64,000 nucleotides of DNA from Narcine bancroftii (GCF_036971445.1 NC_091473.1:206274001-206338000), one strand, 5' to 3'. Positions 4,723 to 60,519 are shown, numbered from the stretch's first letter. Notes: a model not told the origin generated them from the letters alone. Translations and numbers: made by a program.

Positions 4723-5031
4723 GACATTGTCGATGGGACGCCATTGCTCAAACACTGCGACCACAGCGACTGAAGGAGACGATGCGAGGTTGAACTATAA
4801 CTATACAGTGACATGTGCAAGTGCTCCTGGATTAATATGGTACCGTTTGTATCCTCGATGATCACAGGGCCTTTTGCAGGTTAGAACTCAAAGTGATAGC
4901 GAGAGGAAGAAAATTCCCAAGGGAATGATTCCGCTAACCATATATAAAACGGAGCTGGGAGACGTGTCCATATTTTATTATGCTCTCAATCCCACATTGG
5001 GACGGAACTGAGTTGACACTATTCATAAACT
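4723..5031 (+). pseudogene. TCR V pseudogene, family A (paralog of the intact V), with 23-RSS and no leader
   Basis: It has the same TTTCAG|GACATTGTCGA start as 47075 and reads …TEGDDARLNYNYTVTCASAPGLIWYRLYPR*…KIP/KGMIPLTIYKTELGDVSIFYYALN. Lesions are a frameshift in FR1, a TGA stop, both Cys changed to Tyr and a 33-bp FR3 deletion. The RSS is CACATTG (4993-99)-23-TCATAAACT (5023-31), with 18/23 spacer identity to the intact gene. Confidence 0.9.
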
Positions 5032-6547
5032 AGCAGATCATCTCGTCGTGCATCAACGCATAAACGGCGCTTTTGAAAATTCTTTGCAGTTCCGTTCAAT
5101 GTGTCAGAAACCGAATGGATGAGAAAAAAAATCATCTTTATCAGATTACAGATGCTGTTTATTGCCAAGTCATAAAACAGAAATGGAATATCACTCGAAA
5201 TTGTCTTTAGTCTGCCATATGTTAAACAAAAATTAGGTCATTAGCAATGGCATTTCCCGGGCCCTGACAGTGAGTGCAAGGGATGTGAACGAAAGTCCCT
5301 TCCAAGGTCACCATAACTCCAGCCCAGTTGAAACCATAGGAAATGAGAGTACAGAACCAAACGTCCACCATGAAGAGGATGCCCTCAGAGCATTCGACGT
5401 TTTTGGATCTCTCCTTGCCCTCAGCGTCACCTTGAATCCTCGTTCAGGTACCAACTTTCCCCAAGTCCTTCTCCAGCAGCCGCCAGCCAGGTATGAGTCA
5501 TTTCACCCCAAGTCGCCAGTAGACCTCAGTTTGTGTGTATTCGTTGCCCGAATGTCTCCATCACGACATGCATGTGTTCTTCAGCTGAAGAGGGCATCAC
5601 TGATCTGTCAACCCTGCTTCTCAATCTGAAAAGGGATATCTTCCCTCTTATTTCTTCCCTGTGCCATTCCGATGCTCCCCGTTATCTGAAAACCTCGTGC
5701 CCGATGTCGACAACAGCCGTCGATTCCTTAGACCCCGACTACATGGTTGCAAGATTTAAAAATATAACACAATGAAAGCATTTATCAGGCTCTTTAAAGC
5801 CTTCATAGAAACGCCGCAGTCGATCTGGGTGGTATTACCCCGTGCGATTGCTGGGACTTCGTTCCACGCTGGTCTGCCCCAGTGGCAGCACTGTCATTAC
5901 ACAAACCCCGGAAGTGCCACATTAACTTCTAAATCCGCACCCATAGATATTTGAGGAGCTTATTCCAAATCTCAGAGGTGCGTTTGAATAATGGGAGTGA
6001 TCTCCATATTCGCCTCCCCCTTTTCTCATCCGAAGTTATATCCTGGTTCCTAGCCCTTGACATTTGGAATAATTTCGTTATAATTAAACCAATTATAGTA
6101 TTGGTAAAATACGGCTCAATAATTAGAAAAAAAATATCAATCTACCAGTCTTGGCCTATGTCATCAATTTTTTTGCCTTTGAAATTTACATCTCCCTTCA
6201 CCTGTTGAAATTACTGTAACTGCAACCTTATCGTGCAGTGAATGACACGGCAAACATCTGTGAAGAATGATTGGTTGTAATGGCACCAGAAGGATGTGCA
6301 TTTCACTCCTTATTATATCATCATTCGGTGCATATTGTGGACAGCGAGTGAATTTTTCAGGGTAGAGATTCGCTTCTCCTGTCAAAGTCGCAACAGTCCC
6401 ATCCCACTTTGAAAACCAAATCCTGTTCACAAACCGTGCACTCCTTACTCTCTGAAGTCCAGATCTCACTACCATGGGAAACAAAGATATGTTATGCAGT
6501 GTAAATAACAATTACTAATTGCGTTCAAAATATTGTGAAACATAAAA

Positions 6548-6930
6548 TGTTCACAATCACTACTATGGAGACGAAATCTTGGAGACCAGGTTCATCTTTA
6601 TTTCAAGCCTGCAAAGTCTGGTGACCCTGGTCTGGAGACACACCGGAGGTTCAGAATCATCACTCCTTTGTACAATCCCGCACTCTACATAACCACACCT
6701 TTATTTACTCTCTTCCAATCAGAATTTCAATACATTACAACCTTCTCCTTTTCCCTTCCATCACTGCAGATACCACACTGTCCCTCCCACATCATACATC
6801 TCATGTTATGCTAATTAGTCCATCCCCTCCTTTAGGGCATCTAAGTTCATATTCATGTCTTTATTGAGCAAGCGCTGTAGTGGCCATGGGTGCCTTAGGT
6901 CACCATGCCAGTCTGAACCAGATTCCTGCA
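6548..6930. mobile_element. LTR-like repeat, copy 1 of an inverted pair
   Basis: Begins TGTTCACAATCACTAC and is reverse-complement homologous to 11178-11548 over about 380 bp. Confidence 0.6.
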
Positions 6931-9564
6931 TCATTGAGATTTATGATAAGAAGGAACCCACTAGCTAGTACGATCTACTCTCAAGCTCTAATCCGCATAC
7001 TTTGCTTTCCATCACTTGTCATAGAATGGTGAAAGTTTAATCACTTTCAGCCATGTTTCACCATATCATGTATAGAAAATATATGAAAACATAAATATGC
7101 AACGGAAATACTGGGCCCATCTTACATGAGCAATTGAGTCACAGAATATTGCGTGTGTTAACAGATACACTGAATGTAATGTACACAGAAGTTGAACGGT
7201 GTTACAAAGCAATGACGACCTATTTAACAATTAGGCATGGATAGCGAAATGGTGTTTCAGTCAGTTAAGCCCACTTCTCTTGCGAACTTCCATGTAAACG
7301 TCCTCAAATATAAACACAAATGATTCGCAGTAATAGCGTAATTAACTCGAGATCCGTTTAGCCGTCATGCCACGATGTTTCACTTAATTCAGAATCGTCC
7401 TTTTTGATATTAAGCTATTATGTATTGGACCAGTTACGGTAAATTTAAATTAAGGGATTCTCAATTAACCCGCTCCATGATTCTCTTCATGTATCACGCA
7501 CTGTCGCATTGGCATATACCGCTAATATCTCCGTGAAGTTCTGTAGTCAGTACCCCTTTGAACGTTATTTATGTAATTTAACTAAATTCTGAATCCTCTT
7601 CTTGCCGTCTCATTCATGCTATGCCATATTTCACGGTCTTCACGGTCTTTACATTCGGCAAGTTCTACACCCACCTCTATTTCGGGGAAAGGGTAAACAT
7701 CTGTAAAGATCAATTCCCAACCTGCCACGCTCTTTCTTCCCCCCACCACCATGCAACAGAAGATAATCGAGATTGAAAACAGGAATACACTGCTCACCTT
7801 CGCTAGTCAGCTTCGTTTGTCTTCTCAGGCTCTCGAATAGACCTCTTCACTGGTCAACTACGATGGCTTGCTCTACGTTTTCTGCATTTGCCTCCAGTGT
7901 CTGCGACCTTTATTTGTAAAATCGCACTATTTGTATATTGAACAAAATGTCAAACTATATACAGCACTTACATTTTATTATTGCAGGACATTTAATACAC
8001 AATATTTTTGATTTGACTGGATCTAAGCCAAAGAAATCCATTCAACGTGCATCGGCATACATGGAAACGAAAAAAAAAACAGTCTTTTGTGTTCATTTCA
8101 TTTCTCAACTAATTGAATACTAGGAGGATAATATCCATACAATTGCACCTGGGAACCATGCTTGAACAGTATTGGTATTTGTGGCCATCTGATTTGAAAT
8201 GAGGCTGGGCCTAATTTCACAAGGAACCATTGAATTGCAATACCTGCCTCAGAATCTTATATTTATCCAATGCAGCAAACGTAGATACATGACTCATATG
8301 CTGAAAATATTTATTTATTTTAATTTGGCTATTCGTTGGTGGAGTCATCTTGGGCAGCAGTGTCTGATCTGACCCATGTTCTTTTCTGTGCAATGTTCTC
8401 CAATACACGATGCTTAAATCGGAACCATGTACGCCATATTTAATAGTCAACGGTGTCATTCATTGGTACAAATGTGTTATAAGTGTTATATCATTAACAA
8501 TATGCGACGCACGATAATCCCCGGTATAATCAAATTGGGCAAGTTTAATTTCATTACTTAATTTAATTTAATTATTCACCGATAATAACCCGTGATATGT
8601 GTTTTGCAATGAGGCGAGTGATATTGAATATAACATGAACATTGGAAACGTTAACGCTATGTGTAAAGCGTATAATTTAAATTCAAAAGCTGAATAATTA
8701 CTGGAAATAGCAGGAAAATAAAGGCTGAAATTACTGACCAGGAGATTAAATACTACAAATGTGAGTGGAATTTCTGGTCGACAATCCTTCTTCAAAAGAC
8801 TGAAGTATTAGGTATTTTATATGCATTGAATCCATCTAGCATAAAAGCGCCAGTGTAAGGTAAGGCGTTACGGAGACAAATATTAAAAGATCTGTTTAAT
8901 AATAAACGGCGGATTAACCGAAATAATGTACAATGTACGAAATAATTAGAGACTAATCGATGAGCCATCGGATTGGTGATCAATATCTTTGATATGCTAC
9001 TTTCTCTGACTTCTGGACAGTAGGGCATCGGCGGACAATGGAGCAGATTAAGAAAAAGTTGAGTGTGCTTGCGGATGAACATGCGACTGCATCAGCCACT
9101 TGCGATATATTATGCAAGCCCACTCTCATCATCTTTGCTGCTTAAACTCTCGATCATCGTCGTGACACTATGTAATATGCCTGGGCCTATCACGACAGTT
9201 TTAATCACAAATGAATAACTTGACCCAACAGTGGTCACGAATGGAACCATTGATATTCTGTTTTATAATGGTTGGTCAATTATATACCATTTAAAAGAGT
9301 TATATATATTTTTTAAAATTTCACCCATTGAATGTCAATTCAGTATATCGACCCAGTGATTTTCCTTTTATATTCTTACAGTTATTGAATTAAAACACGC
9401 AAAAACCTTCTAAATATGACTCATAATTCACAATCACTGATTATTAATCTATTGCCATATTATTTCCTTAATGATACGTTTCCACCTTTTGAAATACTGA
9501 AGAGTTCAGAGAATGTGAGTTGAAATCTTGTCTTCACGTTTCTTTTCCAGATCACCGAATGATT

Positions 9565-9730
9565 ACCATATATATAACCATATATAACCACTTACAGCAC
9601 AGAACAGGCCAGTTCGGCCCTACTACTCCATGTCATAACAAATCCCCACCTTCCTAGTCCCACTGACCACCACCCGGTCCATACCCCTCCAGTCCTCTCC
9701 TCTCTATGTAAATATCCAGTCCTTCCTTGC
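9565..9730 (-). mobile_element. Short 3' end of a CR1-like LINE
   Basis: Has a TAACCATA-type tail followed by ACAGCACAGAACAGGCCAG, matching 29636-29810. Confidence 0.75.
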
Positions 9731-11177
9731 TGAGACGATTTAAAGCCTGGACTCTTAAATGCCTGTTTCTATGAAAAACTGTCCTTTTTTAAAGATTTTC
9801 TGTTACTTATCAATGTTCGTTTTTGATTGATGTTTTGTTCTATCCTGGGTTCGTTTCTCGATCATGGTACTAATCATTTCTCCAAGTGCTACACCTATCT
9901 TCTTGTCACCGGCTTGTTTCCGAATAAATCACTCACCACTATGTTTCCCCCAACACTGTCCTGTCTAACTTCTACTATCTGATCTACTGTTACTCCACTG
10001 ATCTCATCTTCTTTGCTTATACTCCTGGTGCTTGTAACTACTATTATTTTTTAGATTTGTATGTATGACCGTCATGTTTTCTCTCTGGACTTATGTTTTA
10101 AAGTTAGCTGTTTTGTGCAACCTTGGGGATGAAATTATTTTCACTCTTTGTGTTTTAAAGTTAGCAGGCTTAGGAGTCAGCAAATTCTACTCATACTATA
10201 ATCAGCCAACCTTTCTACATTCTGTGTCTGATACCTAATTACATTCATATTTTTCATATATAGTGCAGTTAAAGCATACAATAAATTGTTACATAGTAAT
10301 TGATTTCATACTAATGGATTAATGAAAACAATAAATGTTTTCATTATGTTGTACATAATAGTACATTGGTATATTCTCCCTATCTCTCACCCCCTTTCAT
10401 TTTTCCATTCTCTCCTTTCACAGAGCCAAAATCAATTCTCACCTTTACTCTTATCAAATCCCATTTTCATATTTTCTTTTTTTTTGTCTGTACTCTTCTT
10501 CCTCCCCTCCCATCTTCGTCATTACTTTCCCCAACTTATAATTTCGCATGTGGTTTTCCCTTATACCGTGAGGAAGTGCTCAGGCCCAGAACGTCGTAAA
10601 TATATTTTACCTCATTTGGCCGTTGCTAGACCTGCTGCGTTCCATCGAATTTCTGTGTTATGGAAAAGGTGATGATGCACAGGAATGCCACATTCGTCAT
10701 GTGGTCCCATTCTGATAACGACACACAACAAGAAAAGTCACTCCAACTTCACAGATGCGTCTTGGATACAATAGCTACGCATGAGCACAACGAAGAAATT
10801 TATATACCAATTATGGGTTTTCTCAAAATCCATTAATACCGTTTATTCATAATTTACAAGATACAAGAGTTAAGAAGTTTCCGGGAAATCACTTGAATGC
10901 CAATTTGTTGCAGTTCCTCGCAAAAATCTCAGTAAAGGATTACAGGAACTTTGCTTTGTCATTATAGGGCGACACGATAAGGGCTGGAGGGGGAGGGCGA
11001 TGTAGTTTAATCAGAAACACATAGTCAAGAAAAAAAGGGAGGATTGTGAAATATGGATGAAAATAATTAAACTCGCACCATTCTGTGAAAAGTAATGGAA
11101 TTAAAAGTATGCAGATAAACGCTTGAGTGTAGATAGTACTTGCTAGTGGGCCACTTCTTATCAGAAGCACTAAGAAG

Positions 11178-11548: not shown

Positions 11549-11549
11549 C

Positions 11550-15410: not shown

Positions 15411-15624
15411 ACCTCTGAACTATTATCAGGGTCATATCAGGGACTGGAACATATTACAGAGAATCACTTCTCTCCCATTTGGTCCGCCGGTAAGCACAGT
15501 ATTGAGACAATAATCCTTACTAATAATTTTAAGACTCCACAGTGGTTTTCTCCAGAAATGCCTCCTGTGAGAATCTAAGTTTTGTTTCACTTCCGGATAT
15601 GGAAATTTCTGTGCTTTGTTGCAC

Positions 15625-15925
15625 AATAGTACGGTGATAATTCATTGTCACAGATTCGATTGAGCTGACTCTAGAAGAATAATGAAATGTTAGAATGAAC
15701 TGCAGTTACCCATCAGCATTTATTGACGACACTGTTATTTGGTACATTTGATGAACTGATGAATAGTCAAAATATATTCTTGAGGAATTGAGTAATTGAT
15801 TTGAAGAGCGATCACGATTCTCTAGTCCGGAGTTATGCTGGTTATAATAAGAGTTTCAGTTTATTCCTTAAACTATCTCTGTGATCCTTGTATTGGATGC
15901 CAAATTGTTTGTGTGTGTGCCATGA
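15625..15925 (+). pseudogene. TCR V pseudogene, family C
   Basis: Manual translation across frameshifts gives YGDNSLSQ…ELTLEE**NVRMNCSYPSAFIDDTVIWYI**TDE*SKYIL…IP*TISVILVLDAKLF…CAM. It is collinear with 57454-57726. The heptamer is deleted and a decayed leader lies near 15500-15545. Confidence 0.8.
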
Positions 15926-16340
15926 TGCGGGGAAGCAGCGGATCTGAACATTGACCAATACCCGGTAGTTCAAGTGAGCAGTCACCAAAAGTGACACTCC
16001 CTGGGCTCAAGACTAGTGATCAGATACAGAATAATTTTCTTCAGTTTATACATGAATGAACATGGCATTTAATCGTTTTTCATGTCCAATTGGTTTCAAA
16101 ATCAGGAGAAGATATTTTTTGATTCAACCAATCGCATTCTGTAGCCGGCAAATGATTGACAATGCAAGAGATATTTTGGAGTATGATGGATATTGTACAT
16201 ATTGTGCATCACGGAGGAGGTGTTAGTGCTGGGTGCGTGAGCTGACAGGAATGAAGAAAAGTTAAAAGTGGAGTGAATGTCCCATTGCGATCTAAATGCG
16301 ACTGATTAAATCCTGAGATTTTTTTTTCAGGTTAGATAGA

Positions 16341-19500: not shown

Positions 19501-20509
19501 ATTGACTTTCTTTTTTTTATATAGACTAAAACACGTTTATGCTTAATAGGGTTATTTAAACCCTGCACATTAAATGTTGCAAAATTCAAACTGGACTTTG
19601 TTGTCAGAATAAAATAAAAAACCCTCCTTCTATTACTTCAATCCAAAAAAAATATCCTATCTTTAATAAGATAAATTAAAGCTCCCGTTGCTAAATAGCC
19701 CCAATATCAAACAGCCACTAAACAACCCCCCCCCCCCAAAAATAAGGCTTACACAATGAAAGGTATTTTTTGAAGAAATGTAGAACCTACAAAAATAATA
19801 ACACCCCACTTAACTGGGTGTGGAAAGAAATAAAATACCCTCGCAGGTGCTGAATAACTTCCAAAAGCTTCAGTGACATCCAGCCCCCCTCCCCAACCGG
19901 ACTTACAAAATTATATCTAAGTCTGCTCACGACCCCAATGTATTCAATCCCAAGGCTTTTTCTGGATCATCAACTCTTTGACATATCTGCTTTCCCATTC
20001 CCATTTCCATTATTTGTATCAGGTGTCACCCTCATAGGTAAAGAATACCTTTCAGTAGCCCTGCCTGGCAAATAATTAGCACAAATGAAAGCATCGTGAT
20101 CACTCTCAAAAAAACTGTGATTGGAAATTACATAAAAGTCTTCATAACTGCAGGTTTAGTGTATCTAAAAAAAACATTTATCTCCCTTCATTCAAAGCAC
20201 ATCTTTAGCAGAGTTAAATTCTTTACACCTTTTAATAATTTACATATTTAAATCCGGGTAAGAGAAAACCTAATTTCCCTGTACCATTAACGGAGACTGA
20301 TATTGTTGTGCATTTTGGTCTGCGACTCTCAAAATAGTTTCTCTATCCTGATATCATAAACAACGAATCAAAATAGCTCATGGAGATTGACCCGGATATG
20401 GTTTGCTTCCTAAAGCGCTGTGTGCCCTATCTAATTCCAAACCACCTGGAAAAAAATTCAATCCCAATACATCAGGGATCCATTAAAAACAATATATATA
20501 CAATGTATC

Positions 20510-30500: not shown

Positions 30501-30569
30501 TGGTAGAGGTTGATCCACAGATTTACATTCACTGCCTGGTCCAACACCATTCTTCGTTTGGCGTCATGT

Positions 30570-32960
30570 TCTTTTTTTAAACTTTATTTATTCGTTCAAA
30601 ATACAGATAGTAAATAACATATACAACAATAAACGAAAAACATGAACGTTATATTTTTATAGAAAAAATTAAAAGAGAAAGAAAAAAAGAATTCCTCCCT
30701 CTCCATCTTCAGCCAGCTCTCCTAAGGAGAATCATAAAGAAAGGAAAAAATATTAAGGAAAAATTAAACATACATATTAAAATCTAATCAACTTAAATCG
30801 AAATGTAAATATTCTGAATATAACAACCACTTACTAACAAAAAAGCTATAGTTATCACGCAAAACATATGTAACTTTTTCCATTATTAAACAGTATGTCA
30901 TCTCATTATGCCATCTATTAATATCAAACATATTTGTATATTTCCACATACTAACAACATATTTTGTCTCTACAAATAATGCTAAATATACAAAAGCAAA
31001 TTGAAATTTATCTAATCCCAAACCTTACAGAGGTTGCAAACTGCCCAATAAAGAAACTATCAAATCTAAAAGTATTTTAATCGTATACAGATTTGGATTT
31101 ATCCCAACACTTTTTATCCATACCATCCTACAATATTTAATATATGAATGAAATATAAACCTTCTCTGGTACATTCATAAGAAAAGCCTCAAATTTAATC
31201 ATTTCAGATAAAATCATATCGCTACCAAACACACATGTACCAAATACCAAATTTAAAAATAAAGAAACAAAGAATTCTTATCAATACTAGAGCTGTTCCT
31301 CATCATTACGCTTAATCGAACCGTTTAAACCTCGAACATTAAAATTAGCAAACCTCAACTTTAACGTATCTACTAATATTACTAAAGACCAATAATATCT
31401 TTATATAAAATCTCAAATAATCCTATATAGGCCCTCTAATAGGAGAAAAAAATCATAAAGTAAAAGCTAGATAAAATAAAAACTAAAAAAAAATAATTAA
31501 CAACACCCCCCTCCAAAAAAGAACTACCAAAAGCCACCAGTGGCTGATGACTAATAGAACCTAGAATAAATCTCTTCCTCCCCAGCTGAACCAAAAAATC
31601 TCAAAATATCATAATAACATAAAAAGTAAAATAAGAATAAGAAGATTCTGCTATTTATCCAAAAGGTTCCAAACTCCAAGATCCCATTTCAAAAGAAGTT
31701 TGACTCTTTCCATTTCCGTTTTTCCATTTCTATCATTTCTTCCATTTCCAGAACAACCAGAATTTTCTTTAACAGACAATGGTGGACTACGTCTTTGTCC
31801 TCTTATATTAGGCAATGAATCAGCAAAAATCATTGCTTCATGATCATCCTCAGAAAACCGAGATTTATATTCTCCATGAAACACTGCCAGATAGCGAAAA
31901 GCAGACTTATAAATTTTACAATGATGGAGTTTTTCCATTTTCTCGCATTTTGCACCACCAGTCAAAATATTGCTTCTCTATCCAAAAAATCAAACATCGA
32001 ATTATTACAGGTTTCGGTGGCTGCCCAGCTAAAGGTGATCTCCTTTAAGTTCTGTGAGCTCTTTCCAATACCAAGTTTTCAGAAAAAAAAATTCTTGCCC
32101 TCGTACTTGTGGGATCCAATCTGTAAAAAAACGAAAGGATTTCATCCTTCCATACCTTCTGCCAAACCGACAATTTTCACATTATTCCTTCTACTTTGAT
32201 TCTTCAAATAGTCTATTTTCCTCTCCAACTCCTTCTCACGTTCTCGCAATTGTATAACAGATTTTTCAACCTTCAACACTTTTTCTGTATGAGAACCCAC
32301 TTGTTGTTGACATTCCAAAAAAGCAGATTAAATTTTAAAAAAATCTTCACAAGATGCTTCTACACGTGTTTTAACTGTATTCAATTCTGAACATCCTTTG
32401 AGCCAACTCATTCATTATAGGCTGAATGACAGCATTTAACTGGTTACATTGTAATTCAGAAAAGCTCAGCCCTGCTTTCTCTAACGTAGAGGCAGAACCA
32501 GGTAACTGCAGCTCCTGCTGCAACTCAACAAAAGGCATTTTTACAGTCTTACTACGGGTCTGTACTCCCAGCGACGGCACCCCGACTTCCTCAGGGGGTT
32601 GACGCAGGTCTCCCCCGCAGCTCTTTTATTTCCAAAAAATCACGGAAGAGATCGAAATTTTCAGGTTGGAACATTGCCAGAAACGTTTTAGACAATGGAG
32701 TCCTCTTCCTGCGTGCTCCCTGCGTTAAAATCGGCAGGCTGCCAGAATCAAGATCCACTACATGGGAACACGCACCTTTCTCCAAAGAACGGGTAATTCC
32801 AGCTCTATCCTTCATTTGGTGAGTAGTAGACATTTTGTTTCCAGCTCACACAGGCAGGCTTTGTAGTTTAGGCATTGTAGAAATTAAGCCTGAGGCAGGA
32901 GCAAGTGTTTAGGCCCCATATCTTCAGTACTTCGAAAATGTAACTTCTTCTGCACTTGAG
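30570..32960 (-). mobile_element. Internally deleted L1 (5'/ORF1 and start of EN joined to ORF2 3' end)
   Basis: The ORF1 part (MPSLGVQTRSKTVKMPFVELQQELQLP) matches 27011-27367 inverted. The 3' part (GLDKFQFAFVYLAL) matches 36750-37050, and the T-rich tail is at about 30572. Confidence 0.85.
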
Positions 32961-33019
32961 ACAGATGAACAGAAGGAGCCGTAAAAATAGTCAACGGACA
33001 TAAAAGAAGAAAACATATA

Positions 33020-33910
33020 GACACGAATAGCATGGAAACATTCCATACCTCTTAACTTAACCATCCCAATCAAAGTGCCCCACCCACACAAACCCACTTT
33101 GCAATCCTATGTACAATTAACTCATTCGGCATCCTGTTCTACACCTCCACCACACTCTACACTTTCTTACCATTCACTAACCTGTTAAAAACCTCTTACT
33201 TCAACCTGAGGGTGTGGTTCCCAATTTCCTTACTCTGAAGAGAAGACTGCATTTCCCCTGATGTATTTCTCTCCTGATGACGTATATAACTGACAAACAT
33301 CGATGACTGTCCTGGGGTCCAATTAATAAAGTCATAGCCTCCTCAACCTCTCCATATAGCTCAGACATCCGAGTCCTGGAACCATCCTGATAAATATTCT
33401 TTTCAACCTCTCCATTTTGACAACTTCTTTTCGATTACATGGTAACAACATCAGAGCACAACAATCCAAAGAATACTGCATTAACAACTCATAAAGCTGC
33501 AAATTTACCTTCAAACATCTCTACTCATTATTGGAACCAATGCAGGCAAATCGGCGGAGAGCCTTATGACGAGCATATCTACCAGAATAGTGATACACTT
33601 TATCTTTACACCTCTGTCCGGCCATATTGATCAGATTCCTGCCATTCACTCTATAGGTTATGACTACGTTCGATCTCCGACACATAACAGCTCACTTTTC
33701 TCAATTAAATTCTAACTACTATTCAGTTTCCCACCAGACCAATCTTAGAAAATTCCACGCAAATATTTTCAAGCTTCTTCACAACCAAAATGCCATACAC
33801 CTCGCTTTCATACGAAAATTTGATAATCCTGCCACGAACATTGAAATCAATTCATTGGTATAGATGACAAATTGGAATAGTTCCAGTACGAAAGCCAACA
33901 TACGAATTAC
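33020..33910 (-). mobile_element. Old CR1 RT fragment (cassette component)
   Basis: ORF 33332-33514 reads LQLYELL…KMERLKRIFIRMVPGLGCLSYMERLRRL. Confidence 0.75.
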
Positions 33911-33944
33911 ATCACCTATGAGTAGTTACAAACTGTTATATCTA

Positions 33945-36900
33945 ACAGTCAATTTCATACTGGAAATCCAAGTGGCTTAATCCAAGAGGTTTACTACAAT
34001 GTTGTTAAAAAATATGGAATTTATTGATTTTTTGAAAAAAACAAATTAATTATTTAAAGAAAATTCTAATTCTGTTCAAAGTAAGTTATCATTATGGGAT
34101 GCTATGAAAGCCTATTTGAGAGGACAAATAATTAGTTATACTTCTAAAATAAAGAAGAATCGATTAAATCAGAGTTTTGAATTAGAGAAACAGATTGAGG
34201 AGTTAGAAAAAGAATTTCAGTAAGATGCTACAGAAGATCAGAAAATAGAATTATCTAGGTTGAAATTGGAATATAATACTTTGCAATCTTATCAATTTGA
34301 ATGTGTGATTAATAGGTCTAAGCAAAGGTATTATGAATGGAGAGAGAAAACACATAAGTTACTGGCGTGGCAATTAAAGAAAGAACAGGTTTCGAGGACT
34401 ATTATTGCTGCTAGATGGAATTCCATTATTACATAAACCTCATGAGATTAATGATGAATTTTACTCATTTTACAAAAAGTTATGTACATCTGAAGGAAAA
34501 CAAAAAACTGAATCGATTGATCTTGTTTTAATCACAGTTGAATTTACCGATATTAGAGGATGCAGATATACAGGAGTTAGAAGAACCATTTACTGATTTG
34601 GAAATTAAAATGGCTTTGCTGGAAATGTCGAACGGTAAATCGCCTGGTGATGATGGATTTTCGGCTGAATTTTATAAAATATTTTATGATGATTCGTCTA
34701 CAGTGTTTGGGGATGTATTACGTCAAGTTGGAGAACAATGAATTACCTGAGTCTTGTTCTAGTGCTTTACTTACAGTAATTCCAAAAAAAGATAGAGATC
34801 CTTTGAATGTATCTTCATATAGACCAATTTCGATGTTAAATGTAGATTATAAAATAATAGCTAAACTATTCGCGAATAGGTAGGCTAAAGTTTTCCTTAA
34901 GTTGATTCATATGTATCAAACAGGTTTTATAAAGAATATATAAGCTTCAGATAACGTTTTTCGCGTGATTAGTTTGATTAATAGATTTAGACAATCTTCA
35001 GATCACCTGATGGTGATATCCCTAGATGCAGAAAAAGCATTTGATAGCGTTGAATTGAACATTTTGTTCAAAGTTTTGGAGAAATTCAAGTTTGTTCTTT
35101 TTTATTGGTTGGATTAGGGCTCTATATAGTAAACCTGTAGCTAGAGTATTGACGAATGATTTGATTTCTGAACCATTTAAGCTATCTCAATCAATTCGTC
35201 AAGGTTGTCCTTTATCATTGGCTTTGTTTGCGTTGGTGATTTAACCTTTAGCCCAATTGATAAGACAAAATAAATAGATACAAGGTATGAAAGTTTTAGA
35301 TGACGAGTATAAAAATAATTTATTGATGATGATGTAATGGCATATTTAGTAAACCCAGCTCAGTCATTTTTGCACTTGAAGGCGTATTTAATACAATATG
35401 GATGTCTTTCTGTATATAACGTTAATTTGGAAAAAAATGAAATATTGCTGGTAAGTGAAGGATATTATTCAGTTTATAAGAATATTATTAATTTGAAATG
35501 GACTGATCGAATTAAATATTTGGGTATAATTTTGAATGTTAATTATCAATATTAATATAAATTAAATTATGTTCCATTAATGAAAAAAATTAAAAGTGAA
35601 TTGATCAAATGGAAAGATTTACCTATTAATTTAATGGGTAGGATAAATACAATTAAGATGAATATCTTTCCGCATGTGCAATATTTTTTTCCAATCTATT
35701 CTGTATTTACTTGATAATTTTTTTTGAGATTTGAATAAAATGGTTACGGAGTTTTTATGGAGAAATATATTTTTGAATAAATTAACTTGGAAATATGAGT
35801 TAGGGGGATTACATTTACCGCATTTTCAATATCATTATGAAGCAGCTCGACTTAAATTTACTAGTTAATTGATGGATTTGGTAAGGCCTCCTCGTTGGGC
35901 CAAAATTGAGATGGCAAATATTTTTGAATTTGAAATACATCAAGTTTTGTTTAGATGGAATATAAATTTGTTACAACAATATAATGTGCCTATATTAAAA
36001 TATTTAATGAAGTTATGGATAAGGAAAAAAATAAAATGACAGGCTCTAGGGGTAAATTATCGGCTTTAACTCCATTGTATAATTATCAACATTCCTTTTT
36101 CAATACATAATCGAAGTTTATTGCATTGGAGATATAAATGTGTGAACAATTTGGGAGATTGTTATAAAGAGGGAACATTTTAATCTTTTAATCAGATGAG
36201 GGAAGGTTTTGGTATTGATAAGAATTATTTGTTTTTACATTGTTAAATTTGATCTTTGATAAGATGTATGTTTGGTAGAGATATGATTTTACCTGAAATG
36301 ACTAAATTTGAGACTTTTCTTATGAAGGTACCAGAGAAGGGTTATATTTCATCTGTGTATCAAGTATTACAGGGTGGTATGGATAAAAAGCGTTGGGATA
36401 GATCTAAAAGTAAATGGGAAGCAGATACTGGTTTTATTTTTTCCCAAAATGATTGGTTATATATTTGTTATGATAGTGTAACTAGATTGATAAATGCCCG
36501 TTATGTAATTGTTTTACATCAATTATATTTAACACCTGAAAATATTTTTAAAGTGTATGGTTTCAATGAATCAGACTTGTGTTTTAGATGTGGTGATACA
36601 GTTCAAACTTTTTTTCATGTCGTTTGGTCATGTATACATATACAATCGTTTTGGAAGAAAATTGAATCGTGTTTGGAATATCTGTATAAGATTAAAATAG
36701 TTTTAGATCCAACAGTATTTTTATTGGGTAGTTTGCAACCTTTGAAAGGATTGGCCTTAGATACATTCCAGCTTGCTTTTGTATATTTTGATTTATCTGT
36801 AGCAAAACAAATGTATTGCTAGTACGCGTAAAGATATAAATATGATTGATAATAATAGATGGCATAAGGAAATGAAAAGTTGTTTAATAATGGAAAAATT

Positions 36901-37100
36901 ATGTCAGTTTCGCGTGCAAATTATAATTTTTATTAATAATTTGTCATTATATTCAGAATATTTACATTTCAATTTACATCCTAATATATATATTTCATAT
37001 TTCTTTAATATTATTTTCTTTTTTCTTTCTTTATGGCTCTCCTTAGGAGAGTTGGCTGAAGGGGGGGGGGGGTTTGAACAAATAAATAAAGTTAAAAAAA
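33945..37100 (+). mobile_element. 5'-truncated L1 ORF2 with 3' UTR and A-rich tail
   Basis: Motifs LWDAMKAYLRGQII, KSPGDDGF, SSYRPISMLNVDYKII, DAEKAFD, RQGCPLS and the CFRC…HVVWSC zinc knuckle. AATAAATAAAGTTAAAAAAA is at about 37081. Confidence 0.93.
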
Positions 37101-38077: not shown

Positions 38078-38440
38078 ATCACCCTGTCTGGTTCACATTG
38101 ATTATAATATCCGTGTTTCCCCTTGAGTCTCTTATTAAATGAATTATTTGCGTCCCGTAGCTATGGTTCACTTTTGAGCTGATCACAGTTTCCGTGTTTT
38201 TTTTTGGCTGGGGCCTTTGGCGACGATTCTATCTCCCAATATCCATCTGAGGTCTCGGTGGAAGAAGGACGAACTTCAACGCGGAAGCATTCGATGGCTA
38301 TGCTGCCTTCTTGTATATGCAGTATCCTGAACAGGCGCTGAGATTTGTACTGAAAGAACTAAGCACTGATTTTAAGGATAGGTCTTCGAATTTCCGAGAC
38401 CAGTTTTCTTCTGTTAATCAGAAAGGAAGTCACGAGATAG
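38078..38440 (+). pseudogene. TCR V pseudogene, family B (decayed leader about 38078-38122, V exon from 38211), 3'-truncated
   Basis: Reads GAFGDDSISQYPSEVSVEEGRTST…AFDGYAAFLYMQYPEQALRFVLKELSTDFKDRSSNFRDQFSSVNQK. The acceptor is AG>TG, the first Cys is deleted, and a CR1 fragment cuts it at about 38447. Confidence 0.85.
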
Positions 38441-39010: not shown

Positions 39011-39304
39011 TGTACGAATGACATCACCAGCGATTGATCAGCCAAACACCTACTAAAGGAATACCAATTCGCAGAAAGCGAATATTTCCTATTTTCTGCA
39101 TTTCCGCATACTTATGTGCTAAGTCGCTTGCACACAGAACGAATATTCGACTCTACTCTGTTTGGTCCCGAGATAAACACAGTTACGAGCCTATTGCCCT
39201 ATTGATAATTTCAAGGATCCCCGTGAGCTTCTCCTTGAATAGTTCTTTGGGGACTGTGGCTTGTTTTCACTCCCATCTATTGAAAATTCCACGATATGTT
39301 GCAG

Positions 39305-39648
39305 AAGCTTGGGAGATACTTCAACGTCCTAGAATCGTCTGAAATGACGCTATAAAAATAACGAGCTCTACCACTGAATTACAGTTACTCGATAGCATTC
39401 AGTGATGATACTGTCATTTGATACCGGCGTTGATCCGAATAATATGCGAAATATCTTCTGAGGACATTCAGGACTTAATCGGCAGGGAGATCTCTAGATT
39501 TCCCAGACAAGTTTTCTGTTCTTGATCATAAGAAAAATTGGCTTGGTACTTCATCTATCTCTTTGATTCTATTCTATGTCGCTGGGGTGATTCTGTCTGC
39601 CACGAGAAGCACACTGCGGTAGAGAATCATCAAATTCGGAAAAAGACA
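39305..39648 (+). pseudogene. TCR V pseudogene, family C, with degenerate 23-RSS
   Basis: It keeps a GCAG| acceptor and reads …DTSTS*NR…LPLNYSYSIAFSDDTVI*YRR*SE*YAKYLLR…SLDFPDKFSVLDHK…AGVILSATR with many stops. The RSS is CACACTG (39610-16)-23-AAAAAGACA. A leader remnant lies at about 39182-39225. Confidence 0.8.
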
Positions 39649-39709
39649 AAAAGCTGATAGTTCTAGTGTGTCTGAACAAAGGGGAAACTTACTCTGTTCA
39701 AAGGGTCTG

Positions 39710-40151: not shown

Positions 40152-40378
40152 TTATCTACTGTATGGTTCACGCTGATTATAATACCTGTGTTTCCTGGTG
40201 AGTCACTGCTTAAAGAGATGCTTTGCGTCTCGTAGCTATGGTTCAAGGTCTGTCTGACCACATTTAGGTTCTCTTTTGCTGTGTCCTTTGGTGACAATTC
40301 GATCTTCCAGTATCCATTTGAAGTGTCAGTGGAATAACTAGCAGGCTGAACTGCAGTTACCCAGCAGAATACGACGCT
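40152..40378 (+). pseudogene. TCR V pseudogene fragment, family B (leader 40152-40197, 5' part of V exon from 40282)
   Basis: The leader (L)STVWFTLIIIPVFP-G|GTGAGT has lost its ATG. The exon reads SFGDNSIFQYPFEVSVE*…RLNCSYPAEYDA and is then truncated by a CR1 fragment. Confidence 0.82.
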
Positions 40379-40389
40379 CACCTGACGCT

Positions 40390-41000
40390 CTCATAATTAT
40401 ATGTACAACTGCAGGATCACTTTTAACAGGCCTGCGGTCCAATGAAAAATACCATAACCTCCTCAAACTCTCCATCTGGATCAGGCCTCCGAGTCCTACC
40501 ATCATGCTGATAAATGTTCTCGTCAACTTACCAAGATTGTTAATTTATTTTCTATTGCACAGTGACCAAATCATCGTAGAATAATCCAAACACGGCCGCA
40601 TAAACGAATCATGCATCTTCAAGAACACTTTCAAACGTCTGTACTCAACACTGTGATGCTGGTCAAGGTGCGGAGAGACTCGTAGCGAGAATATATACCA
40701 GTATAAAGATACCCTGTACCTCCCCCCGGTCTACAATAAATCAGTTTTTAAAACCATTGACTGTGTAAATCCTGCCAAAGACAGACCTCCCAAATACAAC
40801 GTTTCTGAATTAAGTTCCACACATCATTCAACTGTCCACAAGGCCAACCTTTCAAGATTACGCTACAATCTTTAGCAAACACCTTTAAAATCTGAAATAC
40901 CAAGACACTTCTTTACCATCCGAAAACGTGTTAATCTTTGATGTGATTCGTTATAGATGACAAACAGCAAATGTTCAGGGCTTGAGTTTGGTGTACACAG
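40390..41000 (-). mobile_element. Old CR1 RT fragment (cassette component)
   Basis: ORF 40338-40526 reads MTRTFISMMVGLGGLIQMESLRRL and is homologous to 33300-33900. Confidence 0.7.
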
Positions 41001-46445: not shown

Positions 46446-46550
46446 CACAAGAGAGAACAGATTTCACAACTCGTTTTTTCATGCATTCAATTTTTTAAAA
46501 TTCTGAAGCAGGTCGATTCAGGTCAAATTCACCCAAGACGCAACGGAGCT

Positions 46551-47381
46551 ATGTTATCTCTGTCTACTTATTGGCTTCTTACAGCAGTTGCTCTTTACAC
46601 TGGTAAGTTCATGGCATTTCCAATATCCCCCTTTATTCCACTATTTCAACGGATATTTAATTAGTGAATTTCATTCATAAACCGAAAGACTGCAAATATG
46701 GAGAAATACTCAGAATCGTGTATCCAGTTCTTTGTTGAGCAATGCCCGAGAGGTTAAGAGAATATTCATGTCAATTTAAGCAGACTTTCTGCTCTCCTTC
46801 GGGAATGGTAACACTTGGCAGCCTGGCAATTATCCTCCTGTTCCTAAGACTTAAGGTCAACGTGGAGATGATGAAGGAAATGGCTGGATATTATGGAAAG
46901 GAAGTTTAATTAATTTCCTCCATGCAGCTACCTGCTCTTCAAGCGTCATTTCATTTCTATTTATTCTTTTAAATCTCAGAGGAGTATTGGGGATTGTAGC
47001 AGTTCTGGAAAATGTGCGCAGTTAGATTATATTGGTGGTGTTGGTAGCTTCATGTTCTCCTCGGGATATTTCAGGACATTGTCGAGGCGACGCCGTGTCT
47101 CAGACACCAAGTACGATCACAGTGACTGAAGGAATGGACGCGAATTTGAACTGCAACTATACAGCGACAAGCACAAGCACCCCTGTATTAATATGGTACC
47201 GCATGTATCCAGGAAGATCACTCGACTTTTTGTTGATTAGAAGGCAATTTGACAGTGGGGGAAAACAAATTCCCGGTGAACGTTTCTCAGCGGAGCTCGA
47301 TCATTCTAAGGGAATGGTTCCTCTGAAAGTTACTGCAACGCAGCTGGGAGACGCCGCCATGTATTATTGTGCTCTGAGCCC
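46551..47381 (+). CDS. TRAV: Intact germline T-cell receptor alpha/delta-type V gene segment (family A); leader exon 46551-46602, intron 46603-47074, V exon 47075-47381
   Basis: The leader reads MLSLSTYWLLTAVALYT-G and ends at G|GTAAGT. The acceptor TTTCAG|GA CAT gives an in-frame phase-1 join (…YTGHCRG/DAVSQ). The V domain is DAVSQTPSTITVTEGMDANLNCNYTATSTSTPVLIWYRMYPGRSLDFLLIRRQFDSGGKQIPGERFSAELDHSKGMVPLKVTATQLGDAAMYYCALS. It has both canonical Cys, the WYR motif and DxAxYYC, with no stops, and a 23-RSS follows directly. Alpha versus delta cannot be settled from this window. Confidence 0.93.
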
Positions 47382-47420
47382 CACAGAGGTACGGAACTGG
47401 GCTGAGACTGTACAACAACT
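47382..47420 (+). other. 23-bp-spacer recombination signal sequence (RSS) of the intact V
   Basis: Heptamer CACAGAG (47382-88), 23-nt spacer, nonamer ACAACAACT (47412-20). The consensus is CACAGTG/ACAAAAACC. Confidence 0.92.
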
Positions 47421-50810: not shown

Positions 50811-51175
50811 AAAGAGAGCGAGTGTGCTGAATGACAATGAGTGGACAGTGACTGAGAAGACGAATAATAGGAACGAATGTCTAGCAATTTCCTCAGTTGT
50901 AAGCGCCAGAAAATCAACAATATTAGAACCGCCCCATTCTCCCTTCAAGCAAAATACCTGCGCCTGACTGGTGTAGCGTCAGAAATATCATAAACAGCGG
51001 GAAACATCTCCCTTATTCCAAGTTTGTTTTGGAAGCAGCAACCACGTACCCTCTGTGTTTCATGATAATTTTGTAATCTGTTGTTTCCCTATGACTCACT
51101 GATTAAATTGATCCTTTGTTGTCCGTGGTTAAGGTTCACCTTGAAGCGTATCATCCGTTCCGTGCTTTGTTGCCG

Positions 51176-51490
51176 GGGATTTTGGTGGCGATTCTACCTC
51201 ACAGAATGTATCTGAGGTATCGGTGGAAGAGGAACAAATTGAAAGGTTGACCTGCAATTACCCAGAAACATTCGTTGCTAATTCTGCCTTCTGGTACATC
51301 CTGAACATGCGCCGAGAAATGTACAAAAATATAATTCATTGGGTTCGAAAGACCATTCTTCGGATTTCTTTCGTTGATCAGAAAACAAGTCGGACGGTTC
51401 CTTTAATTGCCTCCGGCGTCCTTTTCTTTGACTTAGCCGTGCGTTTCACACACATTGCAGTAGAAAAGCAGTAAATCGGTATATATGATC
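51176..51490 (+). pseudogene. TCR V pseudogene, family B, stop-free but lacking YYC; degenerate RSS
   Basis: Reads DFGGDSTSQNVSEVSVEEEQIERLTCNYPETFVANSAFWYI…VDQKTSRTVPLIASGVLFFDLAV (ORF 51223-51474). The acceptor is CAG>CCG. The heptamer is CACATTG at 51451-57, and a decayed leader lies at about 51046-51092. Confidence 0.85.
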
Positions 51491-53362: not shown

Positions 53363-53815
53363 GTTATCAGCTTGTTATCCTACTGATAATTAAAAGGCTC
53401 CCTGGTGAGTTTATCCTTAAATGGCTCCTGCCGAACCTTAGTTTGCTTTCACTTCCAGCTATTGAATATTCCATGCTTTGTTGCAGGGGCGTGGGGCGAA
53501 GGTTCAGTGTTCCAGAATCTCTGAGTTGACGCTGTGAGAAGAACAATCTGTAACAATGAATTATAGTTACCATTCAGCATTAAGTGACCACTCCTCTATT
53601 TGGTACTTCCGATCATCCGAAGAATCTCGATGATTCTTATCTCTGAGGCTGCTAAGGATAATTAGCTGATCTAAATAAAAATCAATACCTAGTATTCTAG
53701 TCTATTCTATAGTCAGCGTTTCTACTGCTCATCATTGGAATAATCATCTTATACTTTTATCTTACTCTGTGATCATTGCATCTGATGCAGAAGAGTTTTT
53801 GAATGCCTCGCAATG
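53363..53815 (+). pseudogene. TCR V pseudogene, family C (leader remnant 53363-53404, V exon from 53487)
   Basis: The donor CCTG|GTGAGT and acceptor TTGCAG| are retained. It reads AWGEGSVFQN…ELTL*EEQSVTMNYSYHSALSDHSSIWYFRSSEESR*…SVIIASDAEEFLNA, with both Cys lost and several stops. Confidence 0.75.
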
Positions 53816-54301
53816 CATACCAGGGTGAAGAAGCGGCGAATCGCAAAAAAATCCAACACTGATTGTTCCAACCAGCTCTCAGCAAAGGGGGCACTTGTTC
53901 CGCTGAACAGAAGTGATCAGATGCCGATCAGCTTCCAAGTGAATAGCAAATACGTTCCAAACATTCGTCATTTCCAGGAGTCAAACAGCAATTTTTTTAA
54001 ATTTTTCAAACAAGCGAGACGTCCACCCGAGTGACTATGACCTCGCTTCCATACCTTGTACAAAATGATCAAAACATTTCCTGGATATACAAGATCTTTC
54101 ATCTTTCTGTGTGTCCAATTGCTTTTACTATCAGGGGAAGAGGCTCCTTCATTCTTCTAATCCCATTGTCTTGCTAATAATCGAATCACAATGTAACATT
54201 TATTTTGGGGTAATTCATACTTTGTGCTTGTTTTGAACTGCTACAGAAAAGGGATGCAGAAATTGAAACACGATGACATACGATTTACACACACACACTC
54301 A

Positions 54302-54335
<34 letters not shown>

Positions 54336-54850: not shown

Positions 54851-55246
54851 GTGATCTTTCACAGGTTCACGCTGATTTTAACTTCCTTGATTCCCGGTGA
54901 ATTTGTTTAAATGGATCTTTGCCTCCCGTGCCTATGATTAACTTTTAACGTAATCACAGTTTCCGTAGTTTTTTCGCAGGGTTTTTTGGCCACGATTCTA
55001 TCTCCCAATATCCAAATGAGGTGTCGGTGGAAGAAGTATAAACTGCAATGCTGAACTGAGGTTACTCAGCCACGTATGTTGCCGATACTGCTTTCTGGTA
55101 CAGCCAGTAACCAGAATATTTGACGCTATATGTACTAAAGGTTAAGGCAATGGACTCGAATACAGGTCTTCGGGTTTCCGTGACCGGTTTTATGCTGTTT
55201 ATCAGAAAATTGTCCGATGGTTCCTTTAACTATCTCCCGTATTGAC
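54851..55246 (+). pseudogene. TCR V pseudogene, family B (leader 54851-54896, intron 83 bp, V exon from 54980), 3'-truncated
   Basis: The leader is (GTG)IFHRFTLILTSLIP-G|GTGAAT and the acceptor is CGCAG|. The exon reads FFGHDSISQYPNEVSVEEV*TAMLN*GYSATYVADTAFWYSQ*PEYLTLYVLK…RSSGFRDRFYAVYQK…MVPLTISRI. Confidence 0.87.
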
Positions 55247-55682
55247 GACAATTTGATTCTTCTCTTTCTCGGTATCTTTCTATTCCAAATCCTACCGAAT
55301 AAAATAATGTGCAGTTATCAGGAGGGCCATTCCTTTTGAATACCTGTGAGATGCATGTTTGTATAAGCGCCGCACCCTTCGGGGCAGCGAAGACTCCATA
55401 TAATTATTTCAGGCCGACCATGCAGTCGAGTAACAAAGTTCAAATGCGTTTAATATTCATTACATCACTTTGAGATACTGTTTCCCCAATTGTGAAGAAA
55501 TTTAAAATCACGGTACACATCCCTCTTATTGGACCAGTATGACTTGAGGGAATTTGTGCTTTCTGCCCCTTGTCCATGTCCGAGGGCAACGGGTGCCTTT
55601 GGTACATTGATACACTGCACATAATTACGGATCTTTGGAAGGAATTGAAAATATAAGAAAAATAAGACATTGCACGATTGCC

Positions 55683-57190: not shown

Positions 57191-57327
57191 ACATACTTCG
57201 TCACCTGTGAGTGATTAACTAATGATATACTGGGGAAACACCATTTCCACAGTCATATATTATCAAGGACTGACTGGAACATGTTACATATATTCAGGGC
57301 TATTCTTTTAGGTCCGGCATAAACACC

Positions 57328-57733
57328 ATGCTGGGACTATGGTCCTCAGTGATAATTTCAGGGATCCCTGTTAATTTTCTCCTTTCTTGGTTCTTTTGGG
57401 AATCTTAGTTTTGTTTCACTTCCAGATATGGAAATTACTTAGCTTTCCTGAACCGGTGTACGGCGATCATTCAATGTATCACAATAGTTTGAGTTTTCGC
57501 GAGAAGAAAATGATCTATAAGAGGGAATTGCAGTAATGACGCTGTCATTTGGTACATTTGGTGAACTGGAGAATAATCAAAATATCTTCTTCAGATATTG
57601 AATATTGGATCCGAAAAACGATCCCGATTCTCTAGCCACGGGTTCAGCTGTTATGATATCGCTATTCCTTTAGCTTTCTCCGTGATCCTTGAGTTAGAAG
57701 CCGAAGTGTTTCTGTGTGCCATGAGACACACTC
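57328..57733 (+). pseudogene. TCR V pseudogene, family C (leader 57328-57370, V exon from about 57454)
   Basis: The leader MLGLWSSVIISGIP-G has donor GT>TT. The exon reads VYGDHSMYHN…NCS/NDAVIWYIW*TGE*SKYLLQ…IPLAFSVILELEAEVFLCAMR and is followed by heptamer-like CACACTC. The CAMR end is typical of TRAV. Confidence 0.82.
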
Positions 57734-58275
57734 GACGGCGGAGAAACAGCGGACAGGAACACTGGACCTGGTAGTTTCAGCAAGCTTTTTCTCACTAAAA
57801 GTAACACATCCTCGGCTAAAGTGTAGTGATCAGACACAGAATAATTTTCCGCTGTTTATACCTGGACGAGCATCTAATATTTTTACATGTCCAGTTGGTT
57901 TCACATTCAGAAGAAGATAATCATTGATTTAACGAATCGTATTCATTAGCCCATGATTGAATCACAATGCAAGATATATCTTGGAGTACAATGGACATTA
58001 TAGCTGTTGTGAAGTACGGATGATGTGTGATGAAGAGATGCGAGACAGTAACATACATTATACACACATCCACACACGCACGTAAACACNNNNNNNNNNN
58101 NNNNNNNNNNNNNNNNNNNNNNNNNNNNNNNNNNNNNNNNNNNNNNNNNNNNNNNNNNNNNNNNNNNNNNNNNNNNNNNNNNNNNNNNNNNNNNNNNNNN
58201 NNNNNNNNNNNNNNNNNNNNNNNNNNNNNNNNNNGAAATCGAGCGAGCAAGAGAGCACTTTCAATTTTGTTGCGG

Positions 58276-58612
58276 GCGCCTTTGGCGATGATTCCACCTT
58301 CCAGTGTCAATCTGAGATGTCGGAGGAAGAAGGACGAATGTAACGCTGAACTGCAATTACACAGCTACATACCGTGCCAATATAGCCATCTGGCACATCC
58401 TGCATCTTGGGCATGCGCCACGATATGTATTGAAAATATGAAGCACTGGGCTGGAATGAAAGTCGTCTGATTTCTGAAACCGATTTTCAGCTGTTTATCA
58501 GAAAACAAATCGGCTGGTTCTTTTAACAATATATAGCGTCCTTGTCTTCGACTACAACATAGCCATGTGGTCGACACGTTGCGACAGATAATTAGAAATC
58601 CGTGCAATAATC
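58276..58612 (+). pseudogene. TCR V pseudogene, family B, with degenerate RSS; leader probably in the N gap
   Basis: Reads AFGDDSTFQCQSEMSEEEGR…VTLNCNYTATYRANIAIWHILHLGHAPRYVLKI*STGLE*KSSDF*NRFSAVYQKTNRLVLLTIYSVLVFD. The RSS is CACGTTG (58575-81)-22-GCAATAATC, with a spacer homologous to that after 51451. Confidence 0.85.
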
Positions 58613-59149: not shown

Positions 59150-59388
59150 GCATACAGTACGATAACAGGGATTTGTAGCCCAAAAGTGTATGTCGGCCAA
59201 TTACATCGATTGACCCACAATCTCCGGGACTTTCAATCGGTGGGAGGAAACAAGGCCTGCGGGAAAAATTCATGTAGTTAGGGGAAAAGGTACGAACTCC
59301 GACAGACAGATCGGGATTCGAACCCATGTCCTGATGGCTGGTGCCATAACAACGTGGTGCTAACCGCTACGATAACCCTGCCGCCCCG
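59150..59388 (-). mobile_element. tRNA-derived SINE
   Basis: The minus strand has A-box-like TAGCGGTTAGC and B-box GGGTTCGAATCC, followed by a SINE body. It is not a full cloverleaf. Confidence 0.8.
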
Positions 59389-59915
59389 ACTCCAGATGCG
59401 TCCTATAATTATTACAACATCGCCTTGCGAATCAGTGTATAGATGGAGCAGTTCTGTGAGAATTTTTGGAAAACGGAAATCATTTGAATTTTTGAAGACC
59501 TGCTTTATATGCAATCACAGAATAGTACCTTGAAAGGAGGAAGCAGAAAGGTGGTGCAGAACTTGAAAGAAAGTTTGAGTCATCATGAATTCTATAATAT
59601 CAAAGAGATATATACTAAGACGGGAAATTGNNNNNNNNNNNNNNNNNNNNNNNNNNNNNNNNNNNNNNNNNNNNNNNNNNNNNNNNNNNNNNNNNNNNNN
59701 NNNNNNNNNNNNNNNNNNNNNNNNNNNNNNNNNNNNNNNNNNNNNNNNNNNNNNNNNNNNNNNNNNNNNNNNNNNNNNNNNNNNGGTAATCCTCCTCCTT
59801 AATGAGACATGAAGAAAGGAAACTGCCTCATTTCTGTACTTTTTCAAATTCAACGATCTGCTGCATAAACACTGAAACTATTCTGTTGTTTATTTTGGAT
59901 TTGGAACCACCGAAC

Positions 59916-60519
59916 ATGTCTTTTCTCTTGTTCACCTCGTTCATACTCTTCATATTTCCCAGTGAAAGTTTGTTTGAATGTTGGTTTCAGTCCCTGGGTC
60001 GACTCTCGTGCAGACTAATAACGTTCAAAATGCTTTCTTTCGTGAGTTAATTCAATTTCTGTTCCCCAATATCTGTCGGAGATAATGGTGAAAATCTGAA
60101 GAGCTGCACATCCGAACAGCTAATATCCTGCTGTCCTGCAACATGCGATGATTACGAAGCCCGCTGGAACATCCGCTGTTTCGGAACACTCCCCGAACAG
60201 GCCATTTCGGCCCAAGAGTCCATGTCTCCCAATTTGCACCCCATTAATTGACACCATCAGTACGAATTTTGAACGCTGGTAGAAATCCGGATCCCCCGGT
60301 GAAAACCCACACAGATATGGGGAGAATGTATAAACTCCCGACAGATTGCGCGGGACTCGAACCTCGCCCGGTTTCGATCGCTGTCGCTGTAAAGGCGTTG
60401 CACTAACAGCAATTCAGCAGTGCCGCGATTCGCATAAAACATTTGGTAGGGTTCGCTCACTATTTCTGGAATTCGCCGACCATCCCAATCGTGTACCACG
60501 ACGCTCAGTTTCCGCATTG
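59916..60519 (+). pseudogene. Highly decayed family B-like TCR V pseudogene split by a SINE (leader 59916-59961)
   Basis: The leader MSFLLFTSFILFIFP-A|GTGAAA is 46 nt. The exon from about 60042 reads SVPQYLSEIMVKI*RAAHPNS*YPA…DDYEARWNIR. After the SINE it reads HKTFGRV…VYHDAQF, followed by heptamer-like CGCATTG at 60513-19. Confidence 0.62.
60195..60410 (-). mobile_element. tRNA-derived SINE inserted into a V pseudogene
   Basis: The B-box GGTTCGAGTCCC is on the minus strand, and the body is homologous to 59150-59388. Confidence 0.78.

Follow-up and report, generated by a model that had tools for sequence, protein, structure and literature searches.

Dead V genes of a ray TCR alpha/delta locus probably multiplied as passengers of a repeatedly duplicated cassette

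How does a single working TCR V gene come to stand among some eleven dead ones? The window, by which we mean the whole 64,000-nucleotide stretch of Narcine bancroftii DNA under analysis (C11:206,274,001-206,338,000), was described in an earlier note as one intact V among about eleven pseudogenes, all in the same orientation, and was taken there for an extreme case of many separate births and deaths. Its count and orientation held: there are ten clear dead elements and one weak remnant, all on the + strand. A search of the animal's own genome placed the window within a dense run of V matches from ~205.15 to 206.91 Mb, and we analysed ~2.0 Mb around it.

The window sits in a canonical TRA/TRD locus with a V array, 3 D, 1 J, C, 39 J and C. 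Right of the V array we found:

C11:206,935,580, 206,973,405 and 206,974,906, + strand: D segments with 12/23 RSS
C11:206,993,791, + strand: single J of the D-proximal block
C11 ~207,004,700, + strand: first C exon, C1-set (E 5e-8)
C11:207,053,735-207,125,155, + strand: 39 J with 12-RSS and FGxG motif
C11 ~207,130,400, + strand: second C-like exon, its translation read by eye only

Such nesting, with a D-J-C unit set ahead of a J array and another C, is the TRA/TRD plan. The first D lies ~598 kb past the window end and the D-J-C-J-C block 0.6-0.8 Mb rightward; the three D segments, all on the same strand, each carry a 5' 12-RSS and a 3' 23-RSS. These 3 D, 1 J and 39 J are the 12-RSS segments that had been expected to the right. 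Given that the D and J all lie rightward, V genes on the + strand are predicted under the 12/23 rule to join them by deletion, and the intact V would reach a D or a J in this way. Among all V-derived elements of the locus 346 of 350 are on the + strand, and 3 of the 47 open Vs are inverted. Because the best PDB matches of the first C exon were Ig lambda and IgA constant domains, we call it C-delta from its position only. Multi-domain, IgH-like C1 clusters follow on the same contig at 207.5-208.2 Mb, 0.4-1.1 Mb further right, as expected given the IgH linkage to TRA/TRD reported in elasmobranchs (PMC12227049). The translocon form has been described for TRA/TRD of cartilaginous fish (PMC6795676).

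The locus plan together with the V-set and PDB matches supports the identity of the window Vs as TCR alpha/delta V genes. Single-domain PDB matches of the V exons were mammalian TCR alpha and delta; protein database searches returned no homologue at E≤0.001 and no chondrichthyan TCR protein among the results, which is not evidence of novelty. An inverted, broken copy of the first C exon with stops inside lies among the proximal Vs ~150 kb before the D segments (C11:206,786,550-206,786,780, - strand). Separately, an inverted, intact and divergent V with a 23-RSS lies 25 kb before the first D (C11:206,910,273-206,910,624, - strand); its identity to the remaining families is 35-41%. Its PDB matches are antibody-type fragments, and none of the best 60 is a TCR chain; we regard it as a candidate IgH-like V inside a TCR locus.

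The one intact gene of the window consists of the following parts:

46551..46602, + strand: leader exon (17 codons + 1 nt, GTAAGT donor)
47075..47381, + strand: intact V exon, family A, TCR alpha/delta (Pfam V-set E 9.7e-16)
47382..47420, + strand: 23-spacer RSS, CACAGAG / ACAACAACT (consensus scan; 9.4 bits with a nonamer matrix trained on the locus)

Its long V-set frame runs from 47026 to 47466, the leader is separated from the V exon by a phase-1 intron of 472 nt, and the exon, with the V-set match given above, carries Cys23, Trp41 and Cys104. Single-domain PDB matches were TCR alpha chains. All 10 copies of its family A lineage are intact, with exon identity of 0.966 vs 0.89 in the flanks. 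The V exon is covered by contigs from four runs, all belonging to one study, which we guess to be RNA; several show no differences, and one (run X4) passes from the leader into the V exon across the splice as predicted, with a single base substituted. These contigs could derive from any of ten close paralogues, and none displays a V-J junction. No run on record as RNA contains the intact V gene, and uncovered parts are not evidence of silence. Elsewhere in the locus, two tandem copies of the family A 3' end and RSS only lie behind an intact copy as orphan RSSs (C11:206,414,287 and 206,414,842).

Searching with nucleotide profiles of the 47 intact Vs of the locus revealed 11 V elements in the window, all on the + strand and scoring 39.8-446 bits, at 4707, 15609, 38201, 39291, 40274, 47059 (the intact gene), 51161, 53471, 54969, 57456 and 58261; when the 2.06-Mb sequence was reversed, these profiles matched nothing in it. 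The allocation of single elements to family B or C was made in the present analysis and is absent from the earlier note. The dead elements, and one upstream block that has lost its gene, are:

4168..5037, + strand: family A pseudogene with leader and intron (profile match at 4707); 4-nt FR1 deletion, FR2 stop, 33-nt deletion, both Cys lost, decayed RSS
15609..15956, + strand: clade C pseudogene, lineage of 10
32958..33965, + strand: orphan upstream block of a clade C gene, exon gone; 81-88% identity with DNA lying ~230 nt ahead of a V element, at 13 other places
38196..38431, + strand: family B pseudogene, lineage of 6; frameshift at Cys23, 3' end and RSS lost
39286..39654, + strand: clade C pseudogene, lineage of 8, heptamer retained
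40267..40391, + strand: family B 5' half, lineage of 9
51160..51488, + strand: family B pseudogene, lineage of 9 with common 7-, 1- and 14-nt deletions
53467..53852, + strand: clade C pseudogene
54963..55267, + strand: family B pseudogene, several stops, decayed 3' end, no close copy elsewhere
57439..57767, + strand: clade C pseudogene, lineage of 7
58259..58611, + strand: family B pseudogene from a 9-copy lineage, 8 copies of which have the FR3 stop; Cys104 lost
59844..60201, + strand: weak 5' V remnant with leader, intron and FR1 to Trp41, cut by a repeat

Ten of the eleven V positions named before lie within ~20 nt of profile matches; the eleventh, at ~60042, is only the weak 5' remnant, for which a second round of profile searching gave 18.8 bits (E 1e-5) and alignment a score of 124.5 vs a null maximum of 87 in 293 trials. 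The partial V noted at 51223 corresponds to the frame 51145-51474, which departs from the V frame after Trp41. Stops or frameshifts occur in every dead element, and the ten clear ones are 61-73% identical to the aligned intact reference genes. As for the statement that most keep leader, intron or 23-RSS remnants, leader or intron remnants indeed align in 10 of the 11 (the leader at 58261 is unreadable), whereas the RSS part is weaker: a heptamer or nonamer is recognisable at ~7 of the 11, with none at 38201, 40274, 54969 and 60 kb, and the only RSS of the window that passes the consensus scan is that of the intact gene. Profile matches at 33255, 50173, 52573, 56573 and 47623 were rejected as flanking DNA within the profiles, not V exons. 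Interspersed repeats (16627-19589, 25704-27850, 29642-32960 and 33986-37070) account for ~18% of the window and are concentrated in its left half, where V elements are few, and two pairs of long, AT-rich direct repeats with 80-83% identity are present (11774-13826 / 61946-64000 and 1939-2717 / 23330-24089).

Across the locus we counted 350 V-derived elements, of which 47 have both an open frame and an RSS and 303 are defective (87%), a figure that is approximate because fragments are counted, some being halves of one split gene, and at least 5 further elements were missed. If only those elements that span 70% or more of the profile are considered, 169 of 216 (78%) are defective, and ~nine elements classed as defective retain an open frame with a conserved residue missing. 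The 47 open Vs, found by motif scan, form 9 families at 75% nucleotide identity; a candidate leader was found for 43, and the RSS of all 47 scores better at a 22-23 spacer than at 12. Published pseudogene fractions for TRA/TRD are 138 of 371 Vs (37.2%) in cattle, with 83% in the worst subgroup, 19% in human and 16.5% in mouse (PMC4289303), a comparison that is not like for like because the present search counts fragments and relics and is more sensitive. Exactly one intact V, as in the window, was found in 11 of the 19 64-kb bins of the central array; therefore the window is average for its locus, not extreme as first described, and it is the locus itself that is unusual.

The dead elements recur as copies. 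Grouped at 85% identity, the 350 elements make up 84 lineages, which recur in a fixed order and of which 12 include an intact member, and the block from 37.5 to 60 kb of the window is collinear with ~ten other places at 79-88% identity. Lesions are held in common by the copies: the 7-, 1- and 14-nt deletions of the 51161 lineage are present in 9 of 9, the stop of the 58261 lineage in 8 of 9, and the FR1 deletion and stop of the 4707 type in 5 of 5. Within lineages dS is ~0.1-0.2. Pooled dN/dS was 1.06 (0.89-1.29) for 8 dead lineages, which drift neutrally, and 0.57 (0.43-0.76) for the intact genes of 5 live lineages. Given the common lesions and the dN/dS of 1.06, the dead lineages were already dead when copied. 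We consider it highly probable that the window represents a single copy of a cassette that has undergone repeated duplication, and that most of its dead Vs died once, ahead of these duplications, and then multiplied as passengers. A few working Vs would sit in a multi-gene cassette alongside already dead ones, unequal crossing-over would duplicate the whole, and the dead Vs would be copied along, drifting neutrally; selection may act on the hosts of the working passengers, the wholly intact family A lineage being a possible case.

At the distal end of the array (C11:205,152,000-205,243,000) we observed ~nine tandem 10-kb units. Each holds at most two live and four dead elements of family 1, and the array is of more recent origin than the central cassettes.

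The reading offered originally, in which each pseudogene was once a working V that died separately, fits a minority of elements: 23 of 60 copies are broken in the five live lineages, which counts against a pure passenger model, and in the two lineages inspected the lesions of the broken copies are mostly private. Ordinary birth-and-death thus operates too, alongside the passengers. As an account of the window it is very improbable. Nine of the dead window elements belong to all-dead groups with copies elsewhere, and since the lesions were common to the copies wherever checked, separate deaths are largely refuted; the low identity of the ten clear elements to intact genes and a dN/dS of ~1 within and between dead lineages also speak against them.

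Two families, B and C, had been said to lack a functional member in the window. This is correct within it, but for B it does not extend beyond: the rest of the analysed locus yielded, besides the J and C segments, five intact B genes; for C it was an understatement, as no intact C gene is present anywhere in the ~2.0 Mb analysed. For a tree we chose 79 elements, limiting each lineage to two intact and two dead representatives and requiring at least 68% coverage of the dead ones; in it the family B elements group with the lineage that has the five intact genes. The intact relatives in family B and in a further family, fam4, match Pfam V-set at E 7.3e-17 and 9e-14. Both families have lost their intact slot from the window's cassette copy:

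33986..37070, no strand: LINE-like interspersed repeat of 3.1 kb, replacing ~6.0 kb that elsewhere carries an intact family B gene
9563..10999, no strand: junction lacking ~17.8 kb of cassette sequence and, with it, the intact fam4 V slot (collinear blastn, three cassette copies)

Window positions 33965 and 37097 map 6.0 kb apart in a neighbouring cassette copy by collinear blastn, indicating that the intact slot of family B was deleted here; the repeat itself gave a weak zf-RVT match (E 0.043), below the cut-off. A 12-spacer RSS for family B was considered and rejected. The mismatch scan had first preferred a 12-nt word, yet with a matrix trained on 58 locus nonamers this nonamer-like word scored 3.8 bits, below all 58, vs 6.6 for the 23-nt site. 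The five intact family B genes (including L082:1032-1070) thus have a 23-RSS whose 6.6-bit nonamer is among the weaker ones of the locus, and the 12-nt word was judged a chance occurrence.

Clade C (15609, 39291, 53471 and 57456 in the window) is monophyletic with 100/100 support and comprises 73 elements, 0 of them intact. A gap at the same FR1 column is present in 63 of the 63 clade C elements that cover FR1, compared with 3 of 47 dead B; it is absent from all 11 elements of a different dead clade and from all 10 intact genes of B and fam4. The fragments counted had been fitted to an alignment in which the gap was already present, though the controls did not acquire it. Most clade C elements also have a stop just after Trp41. 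Since all 63 copies are without the same base, clade C likely descends from one gene and one ancient inactivation by a 1-nt FR1 deletion. Between clade C lineages dN/dS is 0.97 (0.75-1.26) at a dS of 0.46, and when the whole genome was searched at the DNA level for the 15609 element, at least 32 matches appeared, every one inside the locus. Judging from divergence, the ancestor would have been inactivated ~four times further back than the cassette duplications; an old local amplification may then have produced the lineages, to be multiplied later by the cassette duplications. In two dead C lineages exon identity exceeds that of the flanks (0.90 vs 0.86/0.80; 0.94 vs 0.83/0.91), which counts against the passenger model.

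The best profile score had first pointed to clade C as dead fam4; this was dropped, as C forms its own clade in the tree. Tests of its sister group gave an AU p of 0.13 for C with fam4 and a support of 59/71 for C with B. The possibility, raised earlier, that B and C fall outside the V-set or belong to non-rearranging IgSF genes found no backing: B groups with intact V-set genes and C with the same superfamily of rearranging Vs, and the intact relatives, which share the tree with the dead copies, end in a 23-RSS.

Could the dead copies have been kept for a use? One may suppose that their promoter blocks or spacing help to make the locus accessible or favour the use of Vs. Each clade C copy is accompanied by ~0.9 kb of upstream DNA, and a 20-column window ~270 nt upstream of clade C is the best-conserved spot in six lineages, at a nominal p of 0.019 that is overstated because the null ignores the poorly aligned 5' part; its core we take to be CRE/E-box-like. 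On the other hand, the motif is decayed in several clade C lineages, the upstream DNA diverges as other flanks do (0.83-0.92), and whole cassette slots were freely deleted, leaving this explanation highly unlikely.

Chicken Ig V pseudogenes serve as gene-conversion donors, and the many co-oriented pseudogenes surrounding a few intact genes would suit a similar donor pool for the working Vs of the ray; furthermore, AID is active on shark TCR alpha (PMC5931798). That the pseudogenes are such a pool is nevertheless extremely unlikely, as would-be donors are frameshifted, share the low identity to the nearest intact genes given above and drift neutrally, and for germline conversion none of the 54 clusters of differences private to intact Vs has a perfectly matching dead-lineage donor. 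That the repeated cassettes are assembly artefacts is practically out of the question: the V exons of two units, near C11:205.64 and 205.66 Mb, are identical, but the window's cassette copies differ by 12-21% and by large indels, far past haplotype or read error. The pair itself (C11:205,638,950 and 205,659,227, 20 kb apart) is either a very recent duplication or an assembly duplicate.

Passenger multiplication of dead Vs within a cassette has a precedent. In the bovine TRA/TRD locus a 'collateral' expansion replicated multi-gene homology units, with later deletions; the units carry pseudogenes at equivalent positions with a common lesion, and dead subgroups ride with live ones (PMC4289303). 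The ray locus resembles this in its collinear duplicated blocks, recurring order, common lesions and neutral evolution of dead copies. It differs from cattle, as reported there, in that 78-87% of the array is defective and that at least 63 copies of one extinct clade trace to one lesion. The mechanism is thus already known from cattle, and what is notable is the unusually large scale and the extinct clade of probable single origin. Large tandem-duplicated V arrays with pseudogenes and remnants also occur in human IGHV, where 79 of 123 are pseudogenes (PMC2212390), and in catfish TRAD, with 12 pseudogenes among 140 V genes and 35 remnants (PMC8656973); the loads given in these reports are below that of the ray locus, though counted by stricter criteria. 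Like the TRA/TRD translocon of jawed vertebrates, the locus has V genes with split leader and 23-RSS, 12/23 D, 12-RSS J and a nested D-J-C, and unlike a typical one it has ~47 open Vs of 9 families among ~350 elements and an inverted broken C exon in the proximal V region. Among the main texts searched, from a literature with few subscription journals, no census of V genes and pseudogenes appeared for the TRA/TRD locus of any shark or ray; the supplements of PMC12227049 may bear on this. A stronger proposition, that this is the heaviest TRA/TRD pseudogene load, a fifth of it from one early-dead V copied more than 60 times and kept for a promoter or spacing effect on the working Vs, we regard as improbable.

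For cartilaginous fish the analysis provides a near-complete germline map of TRA/TRD, with ~47 open V, 3 D, 1+39 J and 2 C. In the nurse shark hypermutation was studied without an assembled locus, on germline genes deduced from clones (PMC5931798); with a germline map, mutation could therefore be scored directly. V counts obtained by homology search would overstate the usable repertoire of the ray ~sevenfold. Pseudogene counts, in turn, poorly measure death events, as the dead copies, hundreds in number, trace back to a few dozen lineages, and a whole clade probably to a single lesion.
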